From NCBI GenBank assembly GCA_964019425.1, contig OZ025785.1, positions 930,001-994,000 of the forward strand: a stretch of 64,000 nucleotides of DNA, read 5' to 3'. The notes under the pieces were generated by a model. It was not told the DNA's origin. It saw only the letters and a list, made by a program, of their open reading frames with translations, and did no database searches. Each line of letters begins with the position of its first letter. Positions within the stretch are counted from its first letter, which is position 1. Below, piece by piece: positions 25,293 to 60,964 of this stretch. The stretch is from Flectonema sp. DT1601 (taxonomy: Eukaryota). The position numbers and the translations under genes were made by a program.

Positions 25293-26009
25293 GTTGCTGA
25301 TTGACTTGAAAAATTTTAAGTAATCACGTGTGTTAGTTAGGTATTAATTAGTTATCAAAAAAAAAACAATAAAATTTCAATCCGACAACGACCTCCAGGC
25401 TTTCGACAGTCGGTAACCTCGGTATTAACATGCCGAGCTCTCTTAAGCGCGGGTGCTCCCCTCCGCCCCACCAAGCAACAGTGTTTGGGTCGACACCAGG
25501 CATCCTTGTTGATTGCAGATAGATATGACATTATGAATAAACGGCCCTTGATCTGAATAGATAATAGAGAATTCTCCAACTTTGTCGGTGCAAAAAAAAA
25601 AAAAAAAAAAAAAAAAAAACCCACCCAGTTCGCATATTCTTCGTAATTTTAATTCAGTTTAACAACCACAGTTAAGTGAATTCAAAAAAAACGGGGAAAA
25701 AAAAAAAAAAAAAAACAGCTTTGACGACGCCTTTTAACGCGATAGCACGCCATCGAAATCAGAAAGAAAAAAACAACTTATGAAATAGGTATCTTGTCAA
25801 CACCGAAAGGATAGCTAAACCAGTGTAACAAGAAAGGGATGGATAATATTAAGATGATATTTTGCTCTAGTTGAGAATACAAAAAGTTAGATCATCAGCG
25901 ACAGCACAGTGAAAATTGTTAGTACTTTTTGAACAATAATCAGATAAGAATGAAATACTCATCTTGGTGTTGGGTAATTGAAGTGGGGAATAAGGGAGAA
26001 GGGAAAAAA

Positions 26010-29874: not shown

Positions 29875-30131
29875 GGGTTATGGCCTAAAATACCCCAAAA
29901 TGGCCCAAAAAAGACTGTGCACTCTGGGTCCCAACCACATAGCTGGGTATGAGGATGGGTCACAGTCACCAGGTATTACTCATACAACCATGAGGATTTA
30001 GAGCGTAACTTAAAATACTCACAGAGGGGCATCACAAGCGTCAGACAGGTCACCTAGATTTACTCGAAAGTCGGGGCAATTCGAACGTCAGCATTCACAT
30101 TAGCAAGCAACCAGTCCTGAGTACTTAAAGA
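29875..30131 (-). repeat. Diverged inverted copy of the right interior of the adjacent TIR element
   Basis: 30085-30131 is the reverse complement of about 31399-31445; patchier similarity continues out to CATAACCC. Confidence 0.75.
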
Positions 30132-31822: not shown

Positions 31823-31918
31823 GCGTCCATGGTGCAATGGCAGCACACGCAAATCGAGTTGGGGTCCGTTGCCCACTTCTTCATATCGCGGATCTCGGTT
31901 CGATTCCGAGTGGATGCA
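31823..31918 (+). ncRNA. tRNA-like gene, copy 1, with extended anticodon arm or intron
   Basis: Acceptor GCGTCCA/TGGATGC-A, D stem GTGC/GCAC, T arm CTCGG-TTCGATT-CCGAG, A/B boxes and TTTT downstream. Confidence 0.8.
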
Positions 31919-31949
31919 TATTTTATACAAATACGTTCTACTACAGATC

Positions 31950-32646
31950 TGTAAGGATTTTCACGGACTCAAAATCCCTTCCGGATGAACTGCTGGGATC
32001 GTCACCGTGTTGCCACTTCAGTTCTCTGCATTCATGGAAGGTGCAGACAGAAGAATACCGAGTCCCTCAAGATACTGGAATACCTGCGCATGTTCCCTCG
32101 CACATTGGAATCGAATTTCACGATGAAGTTGACGCGCTTGCAAAGGAAGCAGCACACAACAAGAACATCCGACCTGTACTAGTCAAAGGCACGTACTTCT
32201 CGCGCTCATCACATGTTAAGCGCTGCATCAAGAAGGATCTGCTCAACGTGAGTGGTTACATTTGCTATAAAGACCTCATCGGAGGCCGTTCCGTTAAATA
32301 CCCTCCTGGGATGGAAAGAGCCGACGAGATACGGATAGCGAACTTCCGAGCAGGATGTCACCCGCTACTTCAGAACTGGCGCAAGATGATTAACTTCCCA
32401 TTTTGTGGCGAACCGTCCTCACAGGTTCACCTGCTGCAGGGATGTCAATCTCCTAAACTCGACTCGGCCAGGTTCAAAATCCTGGGCTTCTCAACACTGA
32501 TCGGCAAGTGGGATCGCGATCGGGAACTTATTATTGCCAACGAAATTCCTAACCTTGAAGCTCTCTTCACTTTGGCGTGGCTTCCATCACTCGCGTTGAT
32601 CATAAGGTGGATGAAACAAACATCTAACCTTAGGCTTTGGAAATAA
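31950..32646 (+). pseudogene. LINE ORF2 C-terminal fragment (RNase H plus degenerate zinc knuckle)
   Basis: IFTDSKSL, HVPSHIGIEFHDEVDALAKEAA and EIRIANFRAG..FCGE..HLL motifs. Confidence 0.8.
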
Positions 32647-33056: not shown

Positions 33057-34827
33057 TTTTTTTTTTTTTTTTTTTTTCGGGAAGATAAAATGGAAACTAC
33101 TCTCTTTGTCCTTTTTCATTATACTGTTAATTAGTACAATCTTTCTACTGACTCTGATCGTTGTCTCGACATACAGTGACAGGGAAAACCCGCGAGCTGG
33201 GGACGACAGTCTTCTTTAGCATTTAAGCATTTTTCGACTTGAAAAGACATGACCCTTCAATTTAATGAGTTCTCATGTTTCTGGGTTTGGGATGGGGAAT
33301 GTGCACTTCTTCTCTTGATCCTTTGTTCTCATGGATCCCTTGTCTCTGTGCACAAAAGATAATTCGTCGTCTACCCAGCTTTACATTTGTCGCTGTACCA
33401 GTAAATAAAATGGGGCGAAAGAAGGGGGTGTGAGTCGTCCGTCCTTTGATCTCTGGGGCGTACGGACGTCAAGTTTTTTCGCTTGAAGGTTTTTCATCCT
33501 TTTCTTGGGTTGGGGGGCGGCCTTTGATTTTTATAATATGTGTGCGGCCTTTGGCTCCACTGGTCGGTGTTTCCTGGGGGGGGGGGGGGGGGGGGGGGTG
33601 AAAAGCATGTTTTGGTCCGAGTTTGCCTCGTTGACCGGGGTTTTTTTTTTTTGGGGGGGGTCTGGTTGCAGGTTGTGTCTCCTGCTTCGCGGGGGCTTTG
33701 GTCACGTTTCTAACCTCGCTCCCGCTCTTGTTCTCCCTCGTCCTCTACCATGTGTTTTGGGTTGGCTCTGGGGTCTTGGCTCTGTCTTTTCCTCGACTCT
33801 TGAGACCTCCTTCGTGGAGTCCCTAGCGCCTTCCCCCTTTCGACGAGAAGTCCAGGACCCTTCGCGTTGGATCCCCTTCTCTCTCCCTCATCTCTCCTTG
33901 GGTGCTTTTCTCACTCTGTGACGACGACCTTGTGACCAACTCTACTCCTGCCACACCTTGTCCGTCTCGCTCCGCCGGCTCCGGGCGTACGCCCGCGTCC
34001 GTGAACGAGGTCAGGGAGCCCGGGGGCCCGTGTGCGTACCCCATTGTGTCGGGTGTGTCTCCCTTACCTACCCGACGCAGTGTGGGTTTCCTGTTGTAAC
34101 TCCGCGGCGCCTGTTCCCTCGTGGTGCCCTCCACTGGCTCCGGTTCCTTCTGCTTGCGTCTCTTCCTCTTCGCTTTCCTGCTCGGGTCTGGGGAGAGAAC
34201 CTCTATCCTCTCCCTCTCTTCTCCCTTCCTGTACCTCCTCCTCGCCTGCCGTTCACCTGAGCTCGGGGTGGACTCTCCCATTTCCGCCTGCAACACCTGC
34301 GGACTTGGGTCCTCCTTTCCGGCCCCCTTTGCCCCCGTCTTTGCCTTCCAGCCTCTCGTGCGTCCCCTTCCCGTATTTGTCTTCGGCGACACACACTCCT
34401 CCCTCTCCTCCTCCATTCCCTTTCTGTACTTCGTCCTCCCTCTCGTGCTCGGTGTCGACACCGTGCCCGGCGATCTCTCTGCGTCTTCCCCGCTCCCGTC
34501 ACTACCCACTGCGCGTGGTCCCATCTTCGCCCCCAAACTGGATCTCTCGGCCATTGGTTTTGTTTCGCCTGAGTTCACCAGCTTTGAAAGGGGCTCCGAT
34601 CGGCCCTCCCGTCGTGTTTCCGCGTTCCCCCCTTCTGGGTGTAGTCCCAGCATCCAGGCCATCTGACCTGCGTTCCCCTCGGGCGCCGCTCCCTCTTCCC
34701 ATTCCTGTTCATCGACCGTCATGGTCATTTGGGAGTCTGACGATCCCTCCTCCTCTGTGTCCGACTCTGCCACCTGGACCACGTCCTCTGACGTCTCCTC
34801 GACGTACTGGACTACTGACCCTTCCGC
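33057..34827 (-). mobile_element. GC-rich retroposed fragment D: low-complexity ORF, UTR and poly(A)
   Basis: Poly(A) at 33057-33077 (minus strand). R/E/G/P-rich ORF 33823-34827 with no ATG at the junction. Composition differs from host genes. Confidence 0.55.
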
Positions 34828-35225
34828 TTTTTTTTGAGGGAGGTGAGAGGCAAGTATGGCAGGAGAGCAAACCCTCGGAACCAGCGATCCTTATGTTACA
34901 TGAGTGTGCGCTAAAAAGATAAACTGCAACACAAGTTTTGGGCCGGTTTTCTAGGTCCTACCATATCTGTCGCCGAAGCGAAGAAAAGAAAAAGGAAAAA
35001 AAAAAACAATATTTGTGGTTGTGTTTGCGCTGATGGTTGCACTCCCACTTCCAGCGTGTTTTTTCTTTCTTCTTACATTTACATACAGTTTACATACAAC
35101 TCTGTCTTCCTTTTCACTCTTCTTTTTTTTTTTCCTTTTTCTTTTCACATGTTTGCTTCTTTACATTTTTTACAAGTTCACTTCTTTACATTTAATTTTT
35201 TCCGTTCATTCACTTTCCGTTTCAT
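34828..35225 (-). repeat. Repeat X (~390 bp plus A-tail)
   Basis: Near-identical to 48839-49245. 5'-shortened diverged copies at 60768-60932 and 57677-57765 (+) keep the 3' end and an A-tail. Confidence 0.9.
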
Positions 35226-35298
35226 AGAAGTGAAAAGAACAAAAACAAAGAGTCTGGTAGCACAGACGAGTGTAACCAAAAAAAAAATAATAATGACA

Positions 35299-35400
35299 GC
35301 GTCCATGGTGCAATGGCAGCACACGCAAATTGAAGTGGGGTCCGTTGCAGGGCCACCACTGTCTATATTGTGGATCTCGGTTCGATTCCGAGTGGATGCA
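35299..35400 (+). ncRNA. tRNA-like gene, copy 2 (102 nt)
   Basis: Same acceptor, D and T arms as copy 1. CGCAA/TTGTG stem topped by hairpin AGTGG-GGTCC-GTTGCA-GGGCC-A-CCACT. Confidence 0.8.
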
Positions 35401-35719
35401 TATTTTATACAAATACGTTCTATTCCTCCGTTTCGTGCACAAATAAAAAATCACAGTGTTATATTCTGTATAGTTGAAGATAAAGCCAATTCTTGTTTTG
35501 TTGTACCGACGTCGTCGGAGAAGAAACTATTCGGATTGAAAGCCCGATATTTCTTATGTTATGATTTGTTTTCCCCGTGCGACAGGATTTTGTCGGCGTT
35601 CAACGAAATATAAACTGATAAAGCTAAAGGAGGTTTACGTGTGCTGCCAACATTCTTTTTCGTTCTTACAATACTTGTTAAATGCAAAAAATAAAAATCT
35701 CCGAAGTGGGTCCCCTCAA

Positions 35720-36040
35720 CTCGTTACAACCCGACAGTATTGAACCGTGGGCTGATTTACCGAACCTCTCAATATCGTGTGGCTACGGACACTCCAAAAC
35801 CGTCGATGTTGCAGCTGATAAACCTAAGTTTGATGAATACTGCAGGGAACTAAGACCCTCAGACTCCACGATATATACTGATGGTTCTCATGACCCTAAG
35901 AACTACAGCAGTGCAGCGGCCGTGCAGGTCTTACCGGCGGAGTGTACCAGGGCATCCAGACTTGTGGCCACCGAAAGTAGTTACAAATCTGAACAGATAG
36001 CTCTGAAACTAGTGGTAAATGAAGTTGGCAAGATAAACTC
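35720..36040 (+). pseudogene. LINE RNase H N-terminal fragment
   Basis: EPW..IYTDGS..SAAAV..SSYKSEQIALK, similar to the RNase H of LINE B. Confidence 0.8.
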
Positions 36041-36043
36041 GCC

Positions 36044-36109
36044 GGGTGGTCCGTTGCAAGACCCATTACATTCACATTGCGGATCTCGGTTCGATTCCGA
36101 GTGGATGCA
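36044..36109 (+). ncRNA. tRNA-like gene, copy 3 (3' half only)
   Basis: GGTCCGTTGCAAGACC..TTGCGGATCTCGGTTCGATTCCGAGTGGATGCA followed by the shared tail ATTTTATACAAATACGTTCTA. A LINE fragment stands in place of the 5' half. Confidence 0.75.
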
Positions 36110-37754
36110 CATTTTATACAAATACGTTCTATCAACTTCAGAACAAATAACTATTGATTTAATGAAATCAGAGAGCCTGATTTTCGCGTGGGTGGGTTTC
36201 TACAGAGTGAGGTAAAGAAACGAGGCAAAACCCACTGCTCGGTGCACCCTCCTGTGTACAGATTCCTGTCCTCATGGTTTGGCTTGTTTAACTTTGAATT
36301 CGACCGGGGAGTCTAGATAACACGACTGCTAATGCAAGAAAGCCCTGCACAAGAAACTTGCTGTCTGTTGTTGCAGTCTCTTCTTTGAATGGTACGTGAC
36401 CTTGGACATTATCTCCTTTCAAGCCAGGATCAGGGACTGCAGAGCCTCATTTGACCTCAGCCACTGAAGCAGACTGCAATACGCGCAGTGTGAGTGTTTC
36501 ATCCCCAAGCTTGGTTCTCTTTGTGACTATAGTGAGACTTTCAAAAATGAAAGGAAAATCCTATCAGAACACATAATATCTCAAAAAAAATTCCGCTTCA
36601 ACTCTGTACTTGTACATTATTTCACGCCGCTCGAAACGGCCCTAATCAAAATGCGTGCAATTAAATCCGGTAAAAACTTCACGCTCTGATTTTCACAAGA
36701 TGATCGTTGTCATTCAGTGCAACCAAAAAGAATTTTTCTTCGCCTTGGCGACGGGTAATCGTGAGCCTGTAAAACCAGCTTAAGACTGCTGAAAAAGGAG
36801 AGAAAAAAATTGTTTTCACCGAACGAGTCTGGTAGGCAGGTGGCAGACTACTGGATGAGTCAAGAAGGCGAGTGATCTTTTGATGCCGTTGCCCAAGACA
36901 GACGGGAGTGCTATAATTTTTTTGAAGGAAAATAAAGTGGACAGACGGGAGGGGATGCATCTAAGTGAATATTTTTTCTCCTTTCATTTTTTTTTTTTTT
37001 TTTTGATACTGGATATGTTGTGATACAGAGAAGGTTAATTCTCTGTTCACTCGATATCCTGTTTATGAGCGGGGTAAGTTGACCCCAAAAGGTTCGTTCA
37101 TAAATAGAGAGGAATACAATAGAGAAACAGAAGACTGAGCTAGTTTAGTCTAATGTGCAGCAAGAGTTACGTAAAAATAAAATTAATCAGCATAATAGTT
37201 ACAACAGCATGGTTTGACGGGTTACACGATTAACCCTTATTCTTTGAGTTGTTGACATGTTTATAATCCTCATGTGAGTACATCTAATTTACTTTACGTC
37301 TTCATCTAAATAAGTGTTCTCCACATCTTAAAACTGTCAGCCCTCCTTCCAGCAATCAGCTTTCCCTCTTGCTTAAGAAGTTTTTCGCATAATGGAAGTT
37401 AAGAAGAGCAAGATGAACAAAAGACTTAGTTAGATTTGTCTAATGTTAAGCAAGAGTTACGTAATAAATGTTATCAGCATAATTGTTATTATCAGCATAA
37501 TTAAACAGCAAAATGACAGGCTTCTCAATGAACCCTTCTTGTTCTCAAGGAGTAGGATGATCTCTTCTGTTCATTTAACTTACTGCAGTATCCTCATCAT
37601 TTTCGTAACTACATAATCTTCATCTTTTAAATGACATCAGAATCACCTTCTTCATACATCAGAATCCTCTTCATCATCTGTTCCCCTGTCTGCTTTCCTT
37701 CGGCACCACAAGGCATCTACCTTCACAAAAGAGTGGGGCAAAAGCATCGTTTCT

Positions 37755-40700
37755 TTATTCTCTTATGAGCCTCACCCTTTGGATAAGCCCTTTTCCCACT
37801 TCACATATATATTTCAACAGTATTTTCATACCATCGAATTCATTCACGTGTCCTTCTAACTCTTGTTCCGATAGTATAAGAGATTCGAAGTTTGTTTTTC
37901 TTTCCTTATAGAATGCAGGGCATTCACATACAAAGTGTTGTACTGTGTCTTCGACTTCACAGCATTGACACAATCCATTTCTATATCTATTATCAGTTTG
38001 CTTTGTGGTAAAGCATGCCTTTCCCATCCTTATTTGAGAGATCAATATTTCCATTTCCCTATTGAATTTCGGAGGAAATGATTCTTTCTTTCCTATTTTA
38101 ACTTTTGTATGTAAGAATTTCATTTTCGTCGTTACAGTTTTGTAATCAACTTTGACTTTGTCTTGTTCCATATGTACTGCTTCAGCAGCAAGAGCATCTG
38201 CCCTTTCATTCCCTTCGATTCCACAATGTGAGAAAATATGAGATATATTAACTTTCAAACCCTGTTCACACAGTATTCCCAGGATAATCCAGCATTTAAG
38301 ACCTAGCTCAGTCCGTTGGTAGCAATGACCTCTTTTTAGTTCAGATAAGGCACTCTGTGAGTCTGAGAGAACTAGAATTGCCTTGTCTTCCAACTCCCTA
38401 TTTGGTTTTTTCTTTATTACTTTCAGTAAAGTATTGAGAGCGTGGTATATTGCAAATAACTCCGATCTAAAAGAAGAGCATATTTTTCCTGCCGGGAATT
38501 TACCTTCCAGGAATTTCTCTTCAAAATTTATTACAAATGATGCACCTCCAACTCCTTCACTTACAGAGCCGTCAGTATATATTGTCGCAAGTATGTTGTT
38601 TTCATATTTTTCTTCTAATTTTCTGATAAGTTCTTTACAGATATCTTGATTTCTATTCGTGTTTTCGCATTTTCTCGCACCAATATTTTCGTTAATTTCT
38701 ATTTTATCAAAATCCTTCCAAGGAGGAAAGTAAGTTGGAGGATAAAGTTCTACTGGTAGGTCTGTGAGACCAATATCACTATACGTTTTGATTGCAAAAC
38801 ACAATGTTTGCATATGTTTATATTTTATTTTTCGTTTTTCCATCAATCTTTTGGTACAAGGAGAGGCACGCAGTCGTTCGATCTTTGCAGCCCATCTTGC
38901 TGTTTCAACAAGATAGTAGCTGTTCAGATCCGCTACGCAGGATTCTTCCAAGACCTTCTCAAATTTTGTTCCGTAGTCAGCACCAGTTATGATTTGAGCT
39001 GCTTTCATATGAAGAGTATTCAGTTTTCGCATTAGTTTTCTGTTTCGTACAATGGTGCTGTACAAACTCTCGATAGCATAGGTAAATACAGGTATGATGT
39101 ATATTAAGTAGACTAGTCTGATTATATTTTTAGTACAACCCCATCTTTTATCAGCCAGCATTTTTAGGAAGCGAAGTTTCTTGTTCACACTTTTACATAT
39201 TTGAGATACATGATCAGAAAACGATAGATCATTATCAATCTGGACACCTAAGAACCTCTCAGAATCAGTTTCTGTTAGGCACGTCTTATCTTTAAATTTA
39301 ATTTTATATTGGCATTTCTTTTTCCGTGAGGTACTCGAGTCAACAATCATTATTTTTGTTTTATCTCTCGCCAACTCAAGATTAATGTTGTTTAAGTGTT
39401 CTTCCGCTTTCGTAAATACAGTTTGAACTCTTTTTGACAGCCTACCAGCACAATTTTCGTCAGATACTACAAATGCAATATCATCTGCATAGAGTGACAT
39501 GTTTGCTTTGTTCTCTATAATTTCGGTTATTTCATCAATGTAGAGTACAAATAATATACTCGCAAGGACAGTTCCCTGCGGGACTCCATTTGTGAGCTTA
39601 ATGTACTTGCTTACTCTGCTGTTAATTATAGTCGCAGCTGTCCTTTTGTGCAGAAAGCTTTCGACCCACCTAATATAGTTTTCAGGTATCGACATCTTTC
39701 TCATTCTTTCTTGTAACTTGTGGTGGTTGACAGAATCAAAAGCTTTCTTTATATCCATAAAGACAACCGCCGAAGTTTTCCCTCTTATTCTATTCTCTTT
39801 GAGTATATCGATTAGGTACAGAATCTGTTCCCTACACGATCTCGTTTTACGATAAGCAGCTTGATTATGACTCAGGTTTTTAACACCATTGTTATGTTTT
39901 TCTAAGTGATATACAAGTCTGTTCTTTATTAATTTTTCGATAAGTTTAGCGATCGCAGGGGTGAGCGCTATCATCCTGTAAGATGCTGGATTGTGGGGGT
40001 CTTTTCCGGGTTTTGCAATCGGTACCCAATAAGTCTGTTTCCAGTCATTAGGTACTACCATGTTCAACCAAGAGTTATTTAGGATATCAACTAATGTTTT
40101 TTGCATTTTGGGTTTTAGATTTTGCAACAGGATCGCATTCATTCCGTCAGGTGAAGATTTGGTACTATGTAGTTTTCCCAATTGTGTCATCACCTCAGAA
40201 AAAGTGAACGGAACTATGTCATCTTTAATATTCATGTTGAAGTTATGTCTGTACTTTTCATTTATATCTTTCCCTACTATAGTTGAGAAGAAATCAGTAA
40301 AGAAATCAGCTTTTTCCTTATCGTCGATTATTTTTTCCATATTTGGGTCGTGTATAAATGGTATTTCTACCCTTTCACACCGCCCGTCAAGTTTTCTCAC
40401 ATCATCCATGTACTTTAAAATGCCATCTTTGTTCGGAGATCCATCATCCGTAACACATTCTTTCACTCTTTTTTCAATTTGTTGTTCCCTACATTCTTTT
40501 ACTTTTTCACATATTTCTTCATTCAATTTCTTTAGTAGTGCCATATTTTCATCATTCAGGTCGCTGTCATCTGTAATTTCTTTTTGTTTAGCTTCAAATT
40601 GACGAAGCTGTTTCATTAGTTCGGAGTTCCACCACTTCTTCGCTTTTCGCCTACGCACATAGATTCTAGGTACGTGTTTACTTTTTGCTTTTAATATTTC

Positions 40701-41690
40701 ATTCTTAAAGATTTTTGCTTTCTTTTCATTGATCTTAATATTTTGGATTCTCTCAGAGACTAATTCAAGGTCATCACTGAAGTTTGTCCAATCAGCTTCG
40801 GCCCAGTTGAAACCACATTTTTTCACTTTTTGGTAGTCAACATTTTTGCACGAGTTTTGTATTACAATCATCATTGGTGAGTGATCAGAGTTAACTGTTC
40901 CAAGGGTAGACCAGGATTTTATTCTCATATTTGTATTCGTTAGGGTTATGTCCGGAGAGGTCCTTGATTCCAACCTTGTTGGAATTGATGGCTCATTCCA
41001 ACACACAAGATTGTTTTCACTAATCCACTCAGATACGATTTCTCCGTTGATGTCGTCAATGGAATTCTCTTCCCACATATGGTTATGTGTATTAAAGTCT
41101 CCCATTATGACAACATCATTTTTCATATTATTTTTCAAGTCAATGCAATCTAGGCTAAGATTCGGGCACCTAGTATCTTTATATTGCAGGGGTGGACGAT
41201 ATATGTTATAGACAATTAGAGGTTCATCACATTGTATTTCAACAGCTGATATTTCAAGTGAGTCACAATCACTTTGTGTGATCGCGATTTCTTTAAATTT
41301 ATATTTATTATGAACATAGGTTAGTAGACCTCCTCCTCTTATAGGTTTACCTACTTGTGTTGGAAGTGTCCTATCTTTCCTATATGAGTTATAATCTTCA
41401 ATTACGGGTGTTTTCTTATTTTTCGTTAAAAATGTCTCTTGTATTAATAGCACGTCAGGTTCATAGTTAATAACAAGGAGACGTAGAAGTTCAATTGATG
41501 TTGTCATCGACCTCGTGTTTACTGATATTATTTTAAGGTCTGTATAGTTTCTTTCATTATTTGGTTCCGGGTTGGGATGGACATTACCACGTTGAACCAG
41601 CAAGTTGTCATTAATCACATTTATGCTTTTCTCAACGTTGGTGTCTATTGGAGGGGACGGGTTGTTGTTTTTATGAGTATGGTCTGCATG
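37755..41690 (-). CDS. LINE C ORF2: 2A-like peptide, APE, RT (YADD), RNase H and CCHC knuckle
   Basis: IISVN, IQET, MGDFN, SDH; YRMIAL, GVPQG, YADD, RFLG; IYTDGS, SDSQS, SHCGIEGNERAD; CQCC..H..C. The frame is open from the ORF1 stop onward. Confidence 0.95.
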   Translation of the reverse strand, partial: HADHTHKNNNPSPPIDTNVEKSINVINDNLLVQRGNVHPNPEPNNERNYTDLKIISVNTRSMTTSIELLRLLVINYEPDVLLIQETFLTKNKKTPVIEDYNSYRKDRTLPTQVGKPIRGGGLLTYVHNKYKFKEIAITQSDCDSLEISAVEIQCDEPLIVYNIYRPPLQYKDTRCPNLSLDCIDLKNNMKNDVVIMGDFNTHNHMWEENSIDDINGEIVSEWISENNLVCWNEPSIPTRLESRTSPDITLTNTNMRIKSWSTLGTVNSDHSPMMIVIQNSCKNVDYQKVKKCGFNWAEADWTNFSDDLELVSERIQNIKINEKKAKIFKNEILKAKSKHVPRIYVRRRKAKKWWNSELMKQLRQFEAKQKEITDDSDLNDENMALLKKLNEEICEKVKECREQQIEKRVKECVTDDGSPNKDGILKYMDDVRKLDGRCERVEIPFIHDPNMEKIIDDKEKADFFTDFFSTIVGKDINEKYRHNFNMNIKDDIVPFTFSEVMTQLGKLHSTKSSPDGMNAILLQNLKPKMQKTLVDILNNSWLNMVVPNDWKQTYWVPIAKPGKDPHNPASYRMIALTPAIAKLIEKLIKNRLVYHLEKHNNGVKNLSHNQAAYRKTRSCREQILYLIDILKENRIRGKTSAVVFMDIKKAFDSVNHHKLQERMRKMSIPENYIRWVESFLHKRTAATIINSRVSKYIKLTNGVPQGTVLASILFVLYIDEITEIIENKANMSLYADDIAFVVSDENCAGRLSKRVQTVFTKAEEHLNNINLELARDKTKIMIVDSSTSRKKKCQYKIKFKDKTCLTETDSERFLGVQIDNDLSFSDHVSQICKSVNKKLRFLKMLADKRWGCTKNIIRLVYLIYIIPVFTYAIESLYSTIVRNRKLMRKLNTLHMKAAQIITGADYGTKFEKVLEESCVADLNSYYLVETARWAAKIERLRASPCTKRLMEKRKIKYKHMQTLCFAIKTYSDIGLTDLPVELYPPTYFPPWKDFDKIEINENIGARKCENTNRNQDICKELIRKLEEKYENNILATIYTDGSVSEGVGGASFVINFEEKFLEGKFPAGKICSSFRSELFAIYHALNTLLKVIKKKPNRELEDKAILVLSDSQSALSELKRGHCYQRTELGLKCWIILGILCEQGLKVNISHIFSHCGIEGNERADALAAEAVHMEQDKVKVDYKTVTTKMKFLHTKVKIGKKESFPPKFNREMEILISQIRMGKACFTTKQTDNRYRNGLCQCCEVEDTVQHFVCECPAFYKERKTNFESLILSEQELEGHVNEFDGMKILLKYICEVGKGLIQRVRLIRE

Positions 41691-44600
41691 TCAATCATAT
41701 TCACCGTTTGACATGTCCACATCAGATCCACTGATCTCTGTCTGCCCTAATCCTGGCATTAGTATTTCTAGTTTTGTTTCAATTTGCATGAAACGTTTTT
41801 GGATTGCCTCAAAGTTTTTGTTTTGATTTGCAACATTATTTTCTATTTTCGCAACACGAACGTTGCTTATTTCGACATTTTTTTCAATGTTCTCTATTTT
41901 ATTGAAATACGTCTCATTCATCGACAATAATTTGTCAAGTTTACTCTCCATACCACTTTGTTGCACTTTTTCTTGTTTGTCTGATTCAGGCTTTGCCTGT
42001 GGTGCACCTTCAGCTGTATGGGTTATCAGCTTTGGTTTCGGCCTTTCGGTTCGGGTGCAAGCAAGCTTCACCCCATGGTCTGGCCATTCCAACACCATTC
42101 TATTCTCACCTCCCAGAAAGTCATCCTCTATTTTGAGGACCCACTTGCCATCAATTACTTTGATCGGCTTCACCACAATATCTTTTGTTGCGAAGTTCGC
42201 AATTATCTTGTCCACTGGGACTCCCTTGGGAATACCCTCTACCGAGAAGTATCCTAGGGACTTCACCCCAATACTTTTTCGTACCTGTTCCCTACAGGCG
42301 TTCTCTACCCGTACTCCATAATTTCCCCTACACAGGGCTATTCCATAAGTGCTCTTTACACTTTCCTGCGCTAATATGGACGTTTTTAGGTCCATTCTCC
42401 CCAGCCAGATCACACTTAAGATCTGGTTCATGGGGTGGTCTTTCCTTAGTCTGAAAAACAGCCCTCCTCTTCCGGAGGCACTTAAAAATAGTCTTAGATT
42501 TGGTTCTTCTATCTTGAGAAGAATCGAGAAGGTTTTAAATTCAGGAAGTTTATCGTTGATTTTTTGTGTACTTATGTCGGGACGATAGAGCCCTAATATT
42601 TTTTCACTGTAATTTATAGATGTTAAAATTCTTTGAAACGATGCTTTTACATCACAATTTTGTGTGTCGAAATCAGATACGCCTTTATATTCAGCTTCAG
42701 TTAAAGCCCTCACGGTGGTTTCAGCAATAACAACGATTCCATCAGATATTTTTTTTTTTTTTTTTTGAGTGCATCACGACCCGTGAGTCTGTGATGCTGA
42801 TTGCGCTGTTAGGCGCGGTTGTTCTTTTTCTTTCTTTCTTTCTTACTTTCTTTGTTTTGGGGGTTGGGTGGGAATCCCGTAGGCTTCGTATCTCCTTTCT
42901 TTGTTTTGATAACTTAAAACTAATACTACAGAATAAATTGTCCACTTGGACGACTTCAGATGTGTTGCAATGATGCCTTCAATGTTGATATTCGAAATGT
43001 CGATGTTTTAATAATACTACCGTCCTAATAGTTGTGCCAGTCTGTCTAAGGTTGTGACAAAACCAGTCATCTGCTGTTGATTCGCAGGTAAGTAGCAGTC
43101 CTCCAGTTGGCATGCTTCCTCTCCCTTGTCATTCATCATGTGACTGATGTATTTTTCTCTCAAGGTTTCTATACACCAATGTTCGCATATAAATAATACA
43201 TGATGCGCTGTCGCCTTTCCAAGTTTACAGAAAAAGCACAGCTCGTTCAGTCCTTTGATTATCAGAGATCTGCAATGTCCCACTCTAAAGCGTGACATCA
43301 GTACTTCCTCTGGTCGTGTTAGAACTTCGATGTACGGAGTGTCTTACCCCTCCTGGTCCAATCCAGTTCTCCCGTTTTCTCCGCTTGTGAAACGTCATCA
43401 ATGTTCCCATGTCAAGTTGAGTGGGCAGTTGTTTAATAATAACATCTTCGTGAGGTGGATCTTCCTTCAGGCCTGCAGCGAATTTCGCCAGTTGGTCCGC
43501 TACTTCGTTGTACCGCACGTTTCTGTGTGCCGGTACATACTGCATGTTGACTTGGATTCCCTTCTTCTCCAGTTTCATTGCCAACTTCCAGATCTTTTTG
43601 TTCATTGGGGACCTTTGTTTATATGGCCCTTGTTCCAATGCCTGCATGACTGACATCGAATCAGTCAACAGGTGCGTCGTTGCTGTTAGAGATTCATGTT
43701 CATCCTCCGCCACCTGAACTAAATTTTCCAACGCCAGTTTTACTGCAATCTGCTCGGTCCTATAAGAGGAACCCGCTACTGGTATTTTATATCCAAGTAG
43801 ACGCATCTTGCTTTCTTTTACTATGACCACAGCGGCAGCCGAGTCTGTCATGTAAGTCTCGGATTTGTGTCTTATCGACCCGTCAGTGTAGACTTTCATC
43901 TCGTGAGTTGGTAGTTCAGCTTCTCGCTGTTCAGCCTCTTCCTTGTTACTTGAATATGTGAATCTCATCGCACTAGTACTTTTCCATGGAGGGAGAGTGT
44001 AGTGTTCTGGGTTCACTTCCAGGTTGGTAATGCTCCGGTAATTGTCAAGGCCAGGGACACCAGAGACATAGTCTATCCAGACATTCCATCCCCATTTTGA
44101 TTTTTGAAATAATTCTGAACTCCCTGTTCTCGTCAGCTTGCGAGTCGGTAAGAACGGACTTAATTTGAAACGTTCGTAAGTTCTACACATCTTATACTGG
44201 ATGTGTTCCTTCAGTCTTGGCGTGTCGGCTTCTTTGTATAGTCTCTGTAGTTTGGTGCTCCGCAGACATCCAGTTACCAGCCTCACTGCCCTGTTTACCA
44301 GTAATTCCAGTTGTTCGAAGCACTCTTTTGGTAACATCCAAGCAAAGCTTTCAACACCATAAAGCACCCTTGCTAACACCACCGTCACTAGTATACTAAT
44401 GAGTGTCCTCTTTCTGCAGCCTATCCTAGTGAGTCTAACCAACAAGCCTAGACCCTTGGAAGCAGCTGTCATCATCTTTTGAATTTGCGACTTAAAGGTT
44501 AACTTCTCGTCGTAATGTACACCCAGATACCGCACGGTATTCGTCTTGTGAACTTTTCGTCCAACCGCATAGGCAAATCCGTGTAGTCCGGGTCCCACTC

Positions 44601-47600
44601 TTTGCAGCATCTTATCTATTTCTGCCTTGTTGTGGACTTTCTTCAGTTGTGGGAAGCGGGCACTCATCTTCATTGTTTTCAGTACCGCCGGTTTGTTCGG
44701 TAGCTTGACTTTGATCTTATGTTTTGGAACGACATACAGGTGAGTGATGGCGAATTCTTCTTTTGAAGCTACAGTTGTTGAGTTATCATCCTTCACAAGG
44801 TTACTCATTTGTTCTGCCGTGGCCACCACATATTTAAATGTGTGTTCTTCAGAGTATACTACTACTGGGGACTTGTCATGTGTTCCTCTTGGCCTCACGT
44901 GAATGTATTCCGTCTTGCCAGGGTTCTTATTGATTTTGATGTGTGAGTCAAGTGCCCACCTTTCAAATATTTTGACTGCGTTGTTAACCTTGTTTTCTAA
45001 ACAGCTGACAGTGCCCGCGGTTATTACTATTCCAACATCATCTGCAAAGACAGTCGGTTCGTACATCTCTAGTTTATCTATCAAATCATTTATGAAGATA
45101 GAGAATAACTGGGGTCCCAGCACGCTTCCTTGTGGCACTCCTACTCGAATGTTCCGGAATGCTCCCTTCACTCCATTCACCCTTGTTGAAATCTTCCTGC
45201 TAGTCAAGTAGTTTTGAACCCACCGTAGATATTTCGTTGGTAGTCCTATTTTGGACATCTTATTTAGAAGAGTTACCGGTTGAACTGCATCGAAGGCTTT
45301 TTGTAGGTCGAAGGTGATTAATATCGCTTCTTCTCCCATTGCCTTGGCACTTTTGAGTTTGTCTGTAACTATACAGAGATTTTCAATGGAATCCCGTCCT
45401 CGTTTGTAGGCTGCTTGCCTCGGATTCATTCTGTCTTTCAACAGGTGGTGCATCCGTTCTACGACCATTCTTTCAAAGAGTTTCGAGACGGTCGAGGTTA
45501 GTGCTATCGGTCTGTACGATAAGACTTGTTTCTTGTCTTTATCAGGTTTCAGTATGGGTATTATCATTCCACTTTTCCAGCACCTGGGTACTGCTGATCG
45601 TTGCCATGAGAGGTTGAATAGTCTTAGTAGTTGCTCGAGGAAAGCTTTTGGAAGTTGTTTTAACATCGAGTTCCAGATGTGGTCAGGTCCAGGTGCCTTC
45701 TTCTCCTTTGTTTTTGAAATTTGTCGTTCCAGTTCAGGCATTCCAAATTCCACCGAGTTATCATCAGGTATTCCTTGCAAGGTTGGTTCACCGTCTTCGA
45801 ATTTGAATTGGTCTGCGTATGTTTTGGTGAAGACATCTGCCATCTCCCGCGGGTCGGTTAATTCCTTCTCACCGTCGACAATCTTAGTAATTGAATGGTC
45901 CATCATTCTACCTTCCAGTTGTTTAACTTTTCTAAAGGCCCATCGGTAGTCCATTCCAGTCATGTCGCACTCAATGATCTTCTGTTTAATCATGTTGATA
46001 CCTCTTTCAATTGCTTCTGAGTCTGTCTTATCAGGGTCAGTCTCTGCCATTAAATCTTCCAATTCTGAATCCCTCACAGCGAAGGTACTACTTGACTTCT
46101 TGTTGTAGCCTGGGATGGCCCTACTCGCTGCTCTCAGAATCTCGTTGTTGATCCTATTAGCAAGTTTCTGCACATTCTTAATTCTTTCTAATTTGGGCGC
46201 TGCCCTTTCCAACAATATTTTATAATAATTCCAATCGGCACAATGCCACTTCCATTTCCATGTTCCAGAACTCTCTTTTGAATATTCATCTGTTTTGATA
46301 TCTTCGATTGTCAGTTTGAGTGGCAGGTGATCGCTGCCCCATCCCTTCATGAGTTCGATTTGTGCATCTATTGAAATATCTAATGCAATTACATCCGGAG
46401 AAGCTGAGCTTTGTGGTCTTGTTTGTTGTTGAGGTTTATTTAAAATTTGAATTGTTGCTTCTAGTGACCAATCGTAGAAGCTGTTACCAGTAATGTTCGT
46501 ATTTCCATTTGACCAAGTTGAATGGTGTCCATTAATGTCACCCGCAATCAATGTGCCGGGCTCTGTTTTGAACTTCCAGGTTGTTGCCTTGATTTCAGGC
46601 GGGTGGTAAACATTGTGAATTGTCAATGGCGGATTAGATTGAAGTACTACTGTTAATATCTCAGTTTGGTCATGTGAGATGTCGGGGTGTTTTAATATTA
46701 ACTTATTTAAATCATTTCTGACCAGAGTGACGAGTCCTCGATGACCTGACTTGATGGTGCTGTCTCGCCTGTGGATTGCATATCCTTCAATAGCGAATTG
46801 TTTTTCTTTTGATAACCACGTTTCCTGCAGTAGTACTACTTCAGGCTTTTCTTCTTTCAGTGCCCAGTTCAATCGAAAGTAATTTTCTGGTTTCAGAACT
46901 GAGCGAATGTTATTTGACCAGATCACAATCATGATTGGCCAGTGTTGTTCCTATTGGTCGCACTTGTAGTAATCTTGTTCATACCAAGATTGTTCTCAAT
47001 CCTCTTGACAGCTTCTATCAACGAAGTGATGGCTGTCGCCATGTTGTTGTTGGCTGCTTCGTTCTTTTTCGTAGTTTGCACCAGGGTTTCTACAATCCCG
47101 GTTATCTGTGCCATGCCTTCATCAAGTCGAACTTGCATGTCTTTTACTTCTTTCTGGAGACGTTCGATAGTCTCGTTCGTTTTCTCTCTCAGGCTGTTCA
47201 CGTTGTTTTCTACAACCTGAACTTCGGCCGTTGGTTTCTTCGTTGTCGGGAGTGACCTCTTGACCGCTGCTGCGTACGATGTCTTAGCCTCACGGTACTT
47301 AACTACAACAGGTTTCTCCGTTTCTTTCGCCTTCACTTCTGTTTCTAATTTTTCAATGAGGATGACAATATCACCACACTGTACAAACCTTGATTCTGGT
47401 TTCTTGTCCAGTGCGATGATAAAGTCCCCTCTGTCCATCCTTATAAACTTCGACTTCAGTCCTATCTCCAATAGGATGTTCCGAAGTCTATTGCCCCAGC
47501 TGTATGGTGCTCCACTGAGACGGTGGAGCCCTTCGCCAAACACTGTGGATGCGTATTTACCAGCACCCTTTCTCACCTTGTCAACATCCTTCGTGTAAAC

Positions 47601-48802
47601 CACCCTCAATCCAATCTTGCCATGTATGATGGTGAGTCCATGGCAGAGGTCATGTTGGGCTTTAAGTATGCCAACTGCCTCTTCGTTTGTTGTCTTGCGG
47701 TCCAGCCACACTGTAGTGTACTGAGTGGGTGTCTGTCCCGCCACTGATTTGATCCGGAAATAAACATTTCCTATTCCAGAGTTTTTTAGAAGTATAACAG
47801 CTGCTTCCACATCGTTTGGGAGAACAGTGAGTTCTACGAAGTCTTTGCCAACGTATCTGTAGGAGCGTTGATCGACTCTTCCGTGTTGTGCCACAACAGC
47901 TTTGACAATTGCTGTTACAGCTGCTGGATTTTGGACCTGTGACTTGGTCAACTCTTTAGTTGTTATCCACGCAATTAGTTCGTGGGTCACTGGTGGGCTG
48001 ATCTTCTTGGCGATTGTTAGAGTAGGTCGGTGTATCGTGCCAGACAAAGCAACGAACCACCAGCTTCTTATTCTTAATTGTCCATCAAATTGGACCGGCG
48101 TTTGTATCTGACTGCAGTCAGTTGCGTGTTGTAGGGCACGTTTTGGAGGTGGCCGTGTGAACACCATCGTCAGTTGCTTCGTTTTGCTGGCCTTTTCGAA
48201 GTATTGTTCGTCCAGGCTTCTTCCTTGTTGAGCCAATGAAAGTATAATTCCATTGGTCTTGCTGTTGAGGTCATCAGTTGGCTGGAGTATTTTGCAATTA
48301 AAATGCTCCTTGTTGAGTTTCGGTGGTGGTCCATTCATAATCACCGTTGATCTTCTTTGTGCCTCTTTGATTTGAGGGCTTGATTGGGGTGCCTCATTTG
48401 ACGGAGGGCTTTGTTTCGTTTTTAATAATACGCTTCCTTGTGCCTCTATGTTTTGAGGGCTTATTTGAATTGCCTCTTTGTTTTGAGGGCTTGTCTTCGT
48501 TTGAATTGCCTCCTTGTTTTGAGGGCTTGCTTGAAATGCTGCTGGAGGTCCTACTGCAATCACTTCTACTGAGATTCCTTCTGGCACTTCTGGAGAGTCC
48601 ATCTCCATTTCCTCCTGTTGCTGGGACTCTATCTCCTGCTGAGACCCCTCTTCTTCTTCCCGGATCTCATTTCTGGCTTGTTCCCTCATCATCTTCGCCT
48701 CTTTCCTTTCTCTTTCTCTCCTTTCCGCTGCCCTTCTATCTTGCGGACGCATTGCTTTCTTACCAGCCATTTTATTTTTTTTTTTCAGATACTTTCCAGT
48801 CA

Positions 48803-48807
<5 letters not shown>
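41691..48807 (-). CDS. LINE C ORF1 (357 aa reconstructed), split by LINE B
   Basis: Removing LINE B and one TSD copy joins 48807-48792 to 42748-41691 as MADWKVSDGIVVIAETTVRAL.... Homologous to B ORF1 (VIWL..GVRV); C-terminal coiled coil. Confidence 0.85.
43017..46932 (-). CDS. LINE B ORF2: APE, RT (FADD), RNase H; CCHC knuckle in the +1 frame
   Basis: WSNN, LQET, GDIN, SDH; YRPIAL, GVPQG, FADD; VYTDGS, TDS, PAH..NEVAD. The main ORF stops at 43285 and CFFC..HH...C lies in 43017-43298. Confidence 0.92.
46929..48770 (-). CDS. LINE B ORF1 (613 aa)
   Basis: ATGA overlap with ORF2, SPQNKEA-type repeats, SYAAAV motif and C-terminal coiled coil. Confidence 0.88.
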   Translation of the reverse strand: MAGKKAMRPQDRRAAERRERERKEAKMMREQARNEIREEEEGSQQEIESQQQEEMEMDSPEVPEGISVEVIAVGPPAAFQASPQNKEAIQTKTSPQNKEAIQISPQNIEAQGSVLLKTKQSPPSNEAPQSSPQIKEAQRRSTVIMNGPPPKLNKEHFNCKILQPTDDLNSKTNGIILSLAQQGRSLDEQYFEKASKTKQLTMVFTRPPPKRALQHATDCSQIQTPVQFDGQLRIRSWWFVALSGTIHRPTLTIAKKISPPVTHELIAWITTKELTKSQVQNPAAVTAIVKAVVAQHGRVDQRSYRYVGKDFVELTVLPNDVEAAVILLKNSGIGNVYFRIKSVAGQTPTQYTTVWLDRKTTNEEAVGILKAQHDLCHGLTIIHGKIGLRVVYTKDVDKVRKGAGKYASTVFGEGLHRLSGAPYSWGNRLRNILLEIGLKSKFIRMDRGDFIIALDKKPESRFVQCGDIVILIEKLETEVKAKETEKPVVVKYREAKTSYAAAVKRSLPTTKKPTAEVQVVENNVNSLREKTNETIERLQKEVKDMQVRLDEGMAQITGIVETLVQTTKKNEAANNNMATAITSLIEAVKRIENNLGMNKITTSATNRNNTGQS

Positions 48808-48843
<36 letters not shown>

Positions 48844-49245
48844 AGGTGAGAGGCAAGTATGGCAGGAGAGCAAACCCTCGGAACCAGCGATCCTTATGTT
48901 ACATGAGTGTGCGCTAAAAAGATAAACTGCAACACAAGTTTTGGGCCGGTTTTCTAGGTCCTACCATATCTGTCGCCGAAGCGAAGAAAAGAAAAAGGAA
49001 AAAAAAAAAAAAAAAAAAAAACAATATTTGTGGTTGTGTTTGCGCTGATGGTTGCACTCCCACTTCCAGCGTGTTTTTTCTTTCTTCTTACATTTACATA
49101 CAGTTTACATACAACTCTGTCTTCCTTTTCACTCTTCTTTTTTTTTTTTTTTTCATTTTTCTTTTAACATGTTTGCTTCTTTACATTTTTTACAAGTTCA
49201 CTTCTTTACATTTAATTTTTTCCGTTCATTCACTTTCCGTTTCAT
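48808..49245 (-). repeat. Repeat X copy with a long A-tract abutting the LINE C ORF1 ATG
   Basis: Near-identical to 34836-35225. Confidence 0.9.
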
Positions 49246-49250
49246 GCTTC

Positions 49251-50104
49251 TCACATGGCATCGTTTTTCGATCGCGATCCCCGTGATTTCCTTTTCCTCT
49301 TCTCTTTCCCACGCCGCGATCTCTCCAACAATCCGCAGCATTCAGCGTAGTCACACTTCACGCACATGACTACCCGCGTTCCCTTCGCGATCCGCTCTCC
49401 ACACCTATCACACCATCCCTTCGTCGGGTGTTTCACCGGATTCTTGATCGCTGCTTGCGGTATCTCCTTTCCGCACCCACACATCCCTACTGGGGGGCGG
49501 TCTTCTTGTGTCGGTGGGGAGCAGATCGAGCTCGAGTCTGACGTCATCTTGTCTGAGTCATGGTCCATGGTAGGCTCCGTGGTGGTTTCAGGCACAATAT
49601 TTTTCTCGTGTGTGCTTGTTACCGCCTGTGAGACTTCCTTACCGTTCTCCTCCTTCCACTTTAACAATCTCCTCCCGACTTTTTCCTCACCTCTCACCCA
49701 TCGGTAGGCCTCTTCGCTGGCTTCGGGGGGCAGGCGCTCCAGCCTCAGCGTTGATCCAAGTCGATGCGCCATTCTCTGCGAGACCTCGATGTATCGTCGG
49801 TGTGACTCTACTGAGTGCTCGAGTGAGCCGTACGCCACTATTTCCTTCACTGCGTCTCCGTAACTTAGCAGCTGCGCCATCCCGATCCCTAACGCCTTAC
49901 CCTCGCGGTTCGGCGAGCATTCCTTGAGGGGGAATCTCCACATGTGGATCACTTCACCGCCACTTACAACACACGTTCTCGTCTCCCTCTGTGTTGCTGC
50001 GTAGAACAGCTCATAGATGGGCTTTTCAGAGTGCCATTCTATTAGCTCGATCTTCGCCCTCTTCTTCGAATCTCTAAAAGCCGCTTCCGGTTCCGACTGT
50101 CCTC
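49251..50104 (-). other. GC-rich ORF fragment with C-terminal Cys-rich (ZZ-like) finger, inside the insertion
   Basis: Open frame with WCDRCG..MCVKCDYAECC. Preceded by an A8 junction; no ATG at its 5' end. Confidence 0.5.
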
Positions 50105-50122
50105 TTTTTTTTGAGTGTTTCA

Positions 50123-50144
50123 CAATAAAGTACAGAAAGTGTAG
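50123..50144 (-). other. Spliced-leader relic (3' half of euglenozoan SL exon)
   Basis: The minus strand reads CTACACTTTCTGTACTTTATTG, one mismatch to my recollection of the diplonemid SL end CTACAGTTTCTGTACTTTATTG. Confidence 0.75.
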
Positions 50145-50190
50145 AGACAAGAAAGATGTGACAAAATAAAAAAAAAGTGTAGCTTTCAGA

Positions 50191-50197
50191 GCCGCTT

Positions 50198-50246
<49 letters not shown>

Positions 50247-50263
50247 AATCCCAGGTGGTGGCA
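50191..50263 (+). tRNA. trnF-GAA: tRNA-Phe(GAA)
   Basis: 73-nt cloverleaf with anticodon arm TCAGA-CTGAAGA-TCTGA and a T5 terminator. Confidence 0.97.
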
Positions 50264-60580: not shown

Positions 60581-60964
60581 ATCATCTCCATAAATAGCTC
60601 AACCTGATGAAATTTCTAAAGTTGACTTCGTGACTTACGCCACACCGAAACTACGCCAAACAGAACCCTTTTTTCACATTGAAAACCATGAAAATTATCT
60701 AAAATTAACATCAGAGGGAATATGAATTCTAAAGTATAATAAGATTTCTTTTGAAAAAAAAAAAAGATTCTTTCTTCTTTTTTCTTCTTTGGTTTGGCTA
60801 CAGATATGGTAGGACCTGGGGAACTGGCCCAAAATTTGTGATGCAGTTTATCTTTTTAGCGCACACTCATTTAACATAAGGATCGCTGGTTCGAGTGTTT
60901 GCTCTCCTGCCATACATGCCTCTCAAAAGAAATTATCAATCATCTCCTGTTTGACAGTACTTCG

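Follow-up and report, generated by a model that had tools for sequence, protein, structure and literature searches.

A nest of retroelements ending two nucleotides upstream of a tRNA-Phe gene in a probable diplonemid

Introduction

The insertion of LINEs upstream of tRNA genes is itself not new, and for a LINE with an RNase H domain the precedent is Dp_NLTR-A of Dictyostelium purpureum. According to the available text of its description, this RT-RNase H element lies 2–6 bp upstream of the mature tRNA in 16 cases, and its relative Pp_NLTR-B lies 39–64 bp upstream of tRNA (PMC5006619). In the accessible part of one survey, yeasts and dictyostelids are the only hosts given for elements that insert at set positions upstream of tRNA genes (PMC5911963). 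For Euglenozoa, we found no report of tRNA-upstream LINE targeting in the literature, including the available main texts of PMC10161547 and PMC12278014, supplements aside, and the Ingi-clade literature makes no mention of tRNA targeting by ingi/L1Tc in the portions available. A first-pass annotation had presented an APE-RT-RNase H LINE upstream of a tRNA gene as a novelty; the Dictyostelium element takes away that part of the claim, and what is left is its occurrence in a euglenozoan.

Results

A nest of three elements

We analyzed a 64,000-nt stretch of DNA, referred to as the window, in which a 13,196-bp block precedes a tRNA-Phe(GAA) gene. The block had initially been taken for a single LINE of 13.2 kb. 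This reading was rejected, as the block is a nest of three elements in which C (5,856 bp) carries B (6,036 bp) within its ORF1 and D (1,297 bp) in its 5′ A-run, and intact copies elsewhere agree with this arrangement (Table 1). A tandem array at the −2 site was rejected as well, CTTTCA being absent from the internal junctions.

Table 1 Features of the window. Positions count from the first nucleotide of the window.
Feature	Position	Strand	Remarks
F (33057–34827) joined to D 3′ UTR copy (34828–35225)	33057–35226	−	72 nt upstream of tRNA-like gene
tRNA-like gene	35299–35400	+	A and B boxes, enlarged anticodon loop; Rfam tRNA 41.4 bits, gathering 29
C duplication, left copy CTTTCA	36981–36986	+	single copy at paralogous site 63465–63470
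LINE C, 3′ part	36987–42748	−	poly(A) tail 36987–37004, 3′ UTR, ORF2, most of ORF1
C ORF2	37755–41690	−	degenerate 2A-like motif, APE, RT, RNase H, C-terminal CCHC; Pfam, alignment
C ORF1 from codon 6 on	41691–42748	−	357 aa when intact
B duplication TCAGATA	42742–42748 and 48785–48791		7 bp
LINE B, full length	42749–48784	−	poly(A) 42749–42766; nested in C ORF1 codon 6–7
B ORF2, APE-RT-RNase H	from 46932	−	one frameshift near 43338
B ORF1	from 48770	−	613 aa
C ORF1, first 7 codons	48785–48807	−	ATG 48807–48805; includes second copy of B duplication
Element D	48808–50104	−	5′-truncated 3′ end (last 284 codons, 3′ UTR, poly(A)); A-run before C ATG
C 5′ UTR with A-run	50105–50182	−	P0160 start
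Spliced-leader-like motif in C 5′ UTR	50123–50144	−	22 nt; 21/22 bases match 3′ end of published euglenozoan SL exon
C duplication, right copy CTTTCA	50183–50188	+	2 nt before tRNA +1
tRNA-Phe(GAA), filled locus	50191–50263	+	intact; ARAGORN; Rfam 61.6 bits
B2, 5′-truncated B-family copy (63260–63375)	63254–63381	−	91 nt upstream of second tRNA-Phe
B2 duplication GAGTGC	63254–63259 and 63376–63381		
Second tRNA-Phe(GAA)	63473–63545	+	identical, empty at −2; ARAGORN, Rfam

LINE C is intact. It is an APE-RT-RNase H element of two ORFs that ends in a poly(A) tail and is flanked by a 6-bp duplication. Its ORFs share a frame with one TGA between them, and Pfam identified RT, APE and RNase H domains in ORF2 of both C and B. 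The 357-aa ORF1 is present in several C copies, being intact and uninterrupted through the B site in P0149 and P0152. It matched no Pfam family at E ≤ 0.001, its structure model (mean pLDDT 41.8) predicts a C-terminal helix at low confidence, and its alignment with B ORF1 was weak (E 0.006). The 2A-like motif reads GNVHPNPEP in C and GDIHPNPGP in P0002 and P0141. Because P0160, from the sister subfamily C2, starts with the same reading as 50105–50123 and continues into ORF1, the segment 50105–50182 is the 5′ UTR of C; a separate element in its place was considered and rejected. The 5′ 86 nt of C fold no better than shuffled sequences (z 0.83) and matched no Rfam family.

Element D is 100% identical to residues 4447–4730 of P0204, and its parent is a giant, putatively RLE-type element with RT, OTU and USP domains (Pfam). 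F is the 3′ end of a second giant element with RT, OTU and USP, and the F/D composite is flanked by a possible 4-bp duplication. In P0204, and in it alone, a Cys/His-RHN...PAD motif was seen by eye after the RT, which was assigned by Pfam. The D stretch gave an atlas score of 0.76 to RNase H, which we take as a lead only.

The filled and empty tRNA-Phe loci

The filled locus reads, in order, CTTTCA, poly(T) (36987–37004), CTTTCA, GA and tRNA-Phe(GAA), and the second tRNA-Phe has one CTTTCA and GA directly before 63473. A local chance match to this 6-mer is expected at about 2e-4. The flanks upstream of the two genes are 93% identical across 72 bp. The loci can be aligned for about 400 bp upstream and diverge a few bases past the tRNA, indicating that they are old paralogues; this divergence ruled out that they are alleles. 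The junctions claimed at first pass were confirmed, as was the orientation of C, which is directed away from the intact tRNA-Phe. The paralogous site, which had been called empty, is vacant at −2 but harbors a B-family insertion of its own (B2, 120 bp) 91 nt upstream. At this locus B2 adjoins an 835-bp repeat (G), the end of which lies 97 nt from the tRNA once B2 is removed.

An assembly artefact that fused repeats to a tRNA gene is very improbable, given that there are three separate exact duplications of 6, 7 and 6 bp at three insertions, that the paralogue is empty, and that proteins from other contigs read across both nested junctions as predicted.

Young insertions near tRNA-type genes

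Insertions were counted as young if their family was identifiable and they were 95–100% identical to other copies, a definition that an insertion single in the window and without coding sequence would escape. Repeat G was left out of the count because it had no Rfam match and its direction is not settled. All six young insertions (C, B, D, B2, F and the second D) have their ends no more than 101 nt upstream of a tRNA-type gene. Nick positions are −2 for C, −101 for B with D removed, −78 to −86 for D, −91 for B2 and −72 for F/D. The insertions adjoin three of the four tRNA-type genes in the window, and at the remaining one, at 31823, no young LINE was identified over the nearest 110 nt. The 110-nt zone before the four genes makes up 1.6% of the ~27 kb of non-coding host DNA, and the chance of the pattern at the two loci other than the filled tRNA-Phe is about 3e-4, a rough and post hoc figure. 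The tRNA-like gene at 35299 was overlooked in the whole-window Rfam scan, and ARAGORN with relaxed settings returned noise only.

The window also has four older pieces of these families, at distances of 1,379, 2,196, 2,548 and 5,708 nt to the closest tRNA-type gene. Two of them are on the + strand, and the nearest, a piece of B, is still ~94% identical. Each of the six young insertions is opposite in orientation to its tRNA. Since the − strand also carries every one of the 20 long ORFs that we treated as host exons, being opposite to the tRNA is the same as following the gene cluster, and the two are confounded.

On balance, we favor the reading that C and its sister B are directed to set distances ahead of tRNA or other Pol III genes. 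Such guidance would likely account both for C near the tRNA and for the B and D hits near the 5′ end of C. We consider it rather unlikely that there is no dedicated targeting, with tRNA-upstream DNA simply being open, A/T-rich and harmless, so that many LINEs land and survive there and the −2 position of C is one draw. The zone is shared by the unrelated APE-type C and B, putatively RLE-type D and F, and repeat G, and with three unrelated element kinds a general open region explains the pattern equally well. The older copies elsewhere, the orientation tracking the gene-cluster strand and the abundance of the families (clusters of 91, 35, 26, 22 and 10 proteins) point the same way. However, no identified young LINE insertion was found in the other ~27 kb of non-coding window DNA, B-family copies stand at −91 and −101 at two loci of differing local sequence, and the C nick lies outside any T-run. 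For D and F it is more likely that they are opportunists in the same open region.

B and D might instead target elements such as C at their 5′ end or A-run, in which case the nest would carry no information about tRNA genes and C at −2 would be a single chance event. Two copies of C have B inside their ORF1, D occupies the A-run preceding the C ATG, and LINEs that target other transposons have been published, as the available text on Tx1-Mar describes (PMC4494074). Against this, B2 (63260) stands 91 nt ahead of a tRNA at a site where C is absent, and the paralogous flank has the same site empty. We regard aiming at elements as quite improbable.

The second copy with B inside C is P0154, a C ORF1 on another contig. 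Its first 55 residues derive from the B2 3′ end and poly(A); they match window positions 63268–63375 at 35/36 and are joined to C ORF1 at codon 18–19. This junction is 39 nt from the B site in the window and has the same orientation. P0154 would represent an independent insertion of B in C, its link to a tRNA being assumed. A scan of 102 family proteins gave no other junction of this nested poly(A) kind, and none of eight C2 ORF1 proteins had a B junction. In P0211, the reading of a C-family protein breaks at about codon 145 and runs into sequence to which we assigned no family. The unusual ends of P0119, P0170, P0171 and P0178 were likewise left unassigned. Targeting upstream of tRNA genes, which the first-pass annotation had proposed from one event, is strengthened by two additional loci here, plus an indirect case from a different contig. 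By direct junctions, the C family is represented once (−2) and the B family twice (−91 and −101), with P0154 as the indirect case.

Host and spliced-leader-like motif

The nearest named relatives of C ORF2 are from the diplonemid Flectonema (58–59% identity), and the spliced-leader-like motif in the C 5′ UTR was obtained in 0/100 shuffles. Together with the one-strand gene cluster (20/20 ORFs), these observations support the euglenozoan host suggested earlier, and the host is probably a diplonemid protist. No SL gene was detected in the window. D lies ~18 nt from the motif in C; other D/F copies are not near one.

Relatives of the elements

In a quick RT tree, B, C1, C2, C3 and two Flectonema proteins formed one clade (SH-aLRT 97). 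The tree comprised 111 of 116 rows, with P0004, P0104, P0110, P0204 and P0185 dropped and without named clade references, and the RTs of D and F were left out. No Dictyostelium protein was among the 111 matches at E ≤ 1e-20, most of which are unnamed. Atlas matches to C ORF2 were unnamed APE-RT-RNase H clusters without a clade, a PDB search returned L1 ORF2p and R2 RTs and no close relative, and P0001 found no relative in the viral and prokaryote genomes searched. A metagenome scan kept 80 of 398 loci from 16/64 parts, all at ≤35% identity. None of the 80 contained a tRNA or a blastn match to the window; because these loci are short and not of the C family, they say nothing on targeting. More than one family was present on 14 of 48 contigs, an observation that has no null and was not counted as evidence.

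Discussion

We propose that C inserted first, at full length, 2 nt upstream of tRNA-Phe, and that B next and D last struck near its 5′ end. Target-primed reverse transcription would have started at a nick on the tRNA sense strand. The B-family sites have no common sequence, suggesting that the choice of site would depend on its location, not on what it reads. The location would probably be recognized either through contact with the Pol III initiation complex or through cleavage at the borders of the DNA that the complex covers. C RNA may have acquired a trans-spliced cap, once or routinely, which would have left the spliced-leader copy in its 5′ UTR.

Trypanosomatids have a divergent Pol III start ~104 bp away from box A (PMC4950102), which corresponds to about −97 from tRNA +1 and is near the B sites; in these organisms it serves snRNA genes. 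A more tentative extension of our reading is that of a diplonemid clade of tRNA-targeting LINEs, in which C would use the tRNA start (−2), B the divergent start (~−97), and C would carry a reverse-transcribed SL.

If true, the euglenozoan case would be another independent origin of such insertion, in a lineage with bidirectional Pol III promoters, and the sister pair at −2 and ~−95 would offer a handle on what sets insertion distance. A young, intact APE-type LINE that landed at one set, harmless position would also be of interest for site-specific gene insertion. The spliced-leader-like motif suggests a way in which a LINE could do without the ingi Pr77 promoter and still be expressed where the host trans-splices its transcripts.

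Among known systems, ingi/L1Tc of trypanosomatids resembles C as a euglenozoan APE-RT-RNase H LINE ending in poly(A). A 2A-like motif precedes APE in ingi/L1Tc, and C has a degenerate form of it, but the motif is found in five clades besides Ingi (PMC3708506). Ingi elements have no ORF1 (PMC3708506) and begin with the 77-nt Pr77 signature, whereas C has a spliced-leader-like 5′ UTR and an ORF1 of 357 aa. Because of this ORF1, C is not a plain ingi/L1Tc element. D and F resemble CRE/SLACS/CZAR in having an RT within one long ORF, a putative RLE-type motif downstream of the RT and a poly(A) tail. They differ in reaching 4,730 aa and in having OTU, USP-type and two Cauli_VI domains, and these copies, unlike CRE/SLACS, are not in SL RNA genes.

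Ty3 of Saccharomyces cerevisiae also inserts a few bases from the Pol III start region, although it is an LTR element with an integrase, and its 1–4 bp refer to the transcription start, ~15 bp upstream of the mature tRNA. TRE5-A of Dictyostelium discoideum is, like C, a two-ORF APE-RT LINE upstream of tRNAs in opposite orientation. Its distance of 37–90 bp has a spread similar to that of B, but it belongs to the L1 clade with APE, RT and zinc finger domains only. Contact of ORF1 with TFIIIB was shown for TRE5-A. To our knowledge, a spliced-leader motif is not expected in a Dictyostelium host. As far as its available description goes, Dp_NLTR-A matches C as a non-LTR element with RNase H after RT, a few bp upstream of tRNA, and its pairing with Pp_NLTR-B at a second distance parallels the sister families B and C; it differs in its amoebozoan host and its length (7.4 kb versus 5.9 kb for C). 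It is likely that the C nest reflects tRNA-directed insertion of the kind seen in social amoebae.

Structure of the insertion at tRNA-Phe

The first-pass annotation had described an insertion 2 nt upstream of tRNA-Phe, and its junctions were all found in the sequence: CTTTCA on both sides, with GA as the 2-nt spacer between the right copy and the tRNA. The chance of such a 6-mer match is locally about 2 × 10−4. Upstream, the flanks of the two tRNA-Phe loci can be aligned for about 400 bp, with 93% identity over 72 bp, and downstream the similarity is lost after a few bases. The loci are old paralogues. The second locus had been presented as an empty site, which holds for the junction but not for the region, as a 5′-truncated B-family copy (B2) lies farther upstream. 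The insertion is real, but the 13,196-bp block, which contains three poly(T) runs and two APE-RT-RNase H ORFs, was wrongly described as a single element. It consists of three: the LINE C, its sister B and D, the 3′ end of a giant retroelement.

Features at the two tRNA-Phe loci and the nearby tRNA-like gene
Feature	Position	Length or score	Remarks
F	33057-34827		3′ end of a giant retroelement
tRNA-like gene	35299-35400	Rfam tRNA, 41.4 bits	
CTTTCA, left copy	36981-36986		followed by poly(T) run
C, outer element		5,856 bp	poly(A), ORF2, ORF1, 5′ UTR
C ORF2	37755-41690		
B	42749-48784	6,036 bp	inside C ORF1; 7-bp duplication
D	48808-50104		in A-run before C's ATG
C 5′ UTR	50105-50182		
CTTTCA, right copy	50183-50188		followed by GA and tRNA-Phe(GAA)
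tRNA-Phe(GAA), filled locus	50191-50263		
B2	63260-63375		6-bp duplication; nick 91 nt upstream of the "empty" tRNA-Phe
tRNA-Phe(GAA), identical second copy	63473-63545		single CTTTCA and GA in front

Other copies confirm the nesting of B and D in C. The intact ORF1 proteins P0149 and P0152, from the protein collection, run uninterrupted across the B site. The segment 50105-50182 is C's own 5′ UTR because P0160, of the sister subfamily C2, begins with a reading of 50105-50123 and continues into ORF1. It is very improbable that the arrangement was created by the assembly. All the families are young, with identities of 98–99.6% among C copies, about 98% for B and 99–100% for D and F. The APE, RT and RNase H motifs of C appear intact in the alignment. 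Its ORF1 and ORF2 lie in the same frame, separated by one TGA, after which comes a degenerate 2A-like motif; our guess is that the TGA is read through. At this position (41688-41693) protein P0151 has W, reflecting either a mutation or a different code used by the gene caller. Three C2 ORF1 proteins (P0150, P0158 and P0160) all come from contigs of 26,429 bp, which points to close clustering or to a tandem array. A third B-in-C nest may once have stood at 60947-62094, where, perhaps through a deletion, the 3′ part of a decayed B now directly adjoins part of a C2-like ORF1.

Insertions upstream of tRNA-type genes

The evidence for targeting was drawn from the 64-kb window and the protein collection. 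All six young insertions of identified families, a count that would miss non-coding insertions occurring once in the window, end within 101 nt upstream of a tRNA-type gene and are directed away from it; three of the four such genes in the window are affected. Assuming an original A-run of 8, the distance from the nick to the first tRNA-Phe is 78–86 nt for D and, with D taken out, 101 nt for B, both on the upstream side. F and a D 3′ UTR end 72 nt upstream of the tRNA-like gene, possibly with a 4-bp duplication. The upstream zone accounts for 1.6% of the non-coding host DNA (about 27 kb), and by a rough, post hoc estimate the chance for the two loci outside the original finding is about 3 × 10−4. 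Against targeting, only one C junction was seen, and within 110 nt of the fourth gene, the tRNA-like one at 31823, no young LINE was identified.

We consider it somewhat probable that these LINE families target tRNA-upstream regions. A general hot zone without family-level targeting is unlikely, though a substantial competitor: unrelated element types use the same zone, as an open, harmless region would allow, and insertion orientation cannot be separated from the strand of the gene cluster. Older pieces of the same families, which also speak against targeting, lie farther from the nearest tRNA-type gene, at 1,379 nt for B (about 94% identity), 2,196 nt for a C2-like piece and 2,548 and 5,708 nt for D-like pieces (plus strand).

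A second B-in-C case came from another contig. P0154, a C ORF1 protein, starts with the B2 3′ end and poly(A), joined at codon 18-19, and 35 of 36 residues of its B2 part are identical to window 63268-63375. Given this junction and the nest in the window, B thus struck the first 60 coding bases of C twice. Of the 102 family proteins scanned, P0154 alone had a nested poly(A) junction. As points against targeting, none of eight C2 ORF1 proteins carries a B junction, P0153 lacks its first 17 codons, and P0211 breaks at about codon 145 with unidentified sequence beyond. That B and D seek other elements such as C is improbable, as B2 also sits at −91 without any C. For the same reason, the simplest shared cause would be a tRNA gene adjoining P0154's C copy, which would place the B2 site at about −140 to −154.

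Target-primed reverse transcription, the established mechanism of LINEs, fits the poly(A) tails, the truncated 5′ ends and the short duplications; it would have started here at a nick on the sense strand of the tRNA. For the B family, position is a likelier cue than sequence because the B, B2 and P0154-copy sites share no sequence. TRE5-A offers a model: its ORF1 contacts TFIIIB, and it requires the B box for targeting (available text of PMC5911963). By analogy, C and B may be tethered to the Pol III initiation complex or may cut at its edges. In trypanosomatids, about 104 bp separate the start of an snRNA gene from box A of a divergently oriented tRNA or tRNA-like gene (available text of PMC4950102). 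This corresponds to about −97 from tRNA +1, bracketed by the B-family sites at −91 and −101; a tie between the two is suggestive only. For D and F, opportunistic insertion is the likelier reading.

Neighboring repeats

A tRNA-like A/B-box gene occurs in three copies (31823-31918, 35299-35400 and 36048-36110) with an enlarged, variable anticodon loop and a common 22-nt tail; it could be an intron-bearing tRNA, a tRNA-like promoter or a SINE. Another, older LINE family has left two RNase H fragments on the plus strand (31940-32646 and 35682-36047), each adjoining a tRNA-like copy. Repeat G (62419-63253, 30730-31553 and 29975-30131) has one end fixed in all three copies, without poly(A), and neither an ORF longer than 113 aa nor an Rfam match was found in it. 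With B2 removed, the fixed end of the 63-kb copy is 97 nt from tRNA +1 and 104 from box A. Of the three copies of a short poly(A)-tailed repeat (15603-15734, 25517-25619 and 35490-35613), two lie 6 and 16 kb away from the nearest tRNA-type gene. The tRNA-like gene and both tRNA-Phe genes are preceded by two recurrent short motifs, noticed by eye only (35250-35290, 36716-36840 and 62290-62350).

Host and giant elements

The host is a probable diplonemid, as argued by three observations. The closest named ORF2 relatives of C are two Flectonema neradi proteins (58–59% identity), and all 20 long ORFs taken as host exons are on the minus strand. A 22-nt motif in the C 5′ UTR (50123-50144, minus strand) agrees at 21 of 22 positions with the 3′ end of the 'Euglenozoa 14' spliced-leader exon, which we take to be the diplonemid one; the window contains the motif once, and none of 100 shuffles contains it. 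The exon is tabulated in the available text of PMC3795323. The extreme 5′ end of C, taken together with the duplication (50163-50188, minus strand), looks like the motif repeated in degenerate form, which hints at leader relics in tandem or at microhomology in the 5′ junction.

The sequence of D matches the C-terminal 284 residues of a 4,730-aa protein at 100% identity; this protein carries RT, OTU, USP-type and Cauli_VI domains. Both D and F represent the 3′ ends of giant retroelements that have one ORF of up to 4,730 aa and a poly(A) tail. Their proteins combine RT with an OTU, a USP-type deubiquitinase and two Cauli_VI domains (P0204, P0202, P0196, P0185 and P0181) and form clusters of 26 and 35 members. 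No giant retroelement with this combination was found in the literature among the matches listed, and these elements are possibly more unusual than the tRNA-upstream LINE insertion.

Comparison with known elements

A quick RT tree of 111 of 116 rows, built without named references for any clade, placed B, C1, C2, C3 and the Flectonema proteins in a single clade (SH-aLRT 97). C shares its domains and the 2A-like motif with the Ingi clade, whose elements lack ORF1 (available text of PMC3708506), but it was not assigned to that clade because it carries an ORF1. RLE-type families include sequence-specific elements that insert into tRNA genes (available text of PMC4640811). The literature listings and abstract openings searched showed no tRNA-upstream LINE in Euglenozoa, and neither did the available text of the Diplonema genome paper (PMC10161547) or of the trypanosomatid mobilome paper (PMC12278014). 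C would work like Dp_NLTR-A, an RNase H-bearing non-LTR element for which 16 insertions 2–6 bp upstream of a tRNA gene are described; its relative Pp_NLTR-B sits 39–64 bp upstream (available text of PMC5006619). C is likely a new variant of this known insertion strategy in a new eukaryotic group.
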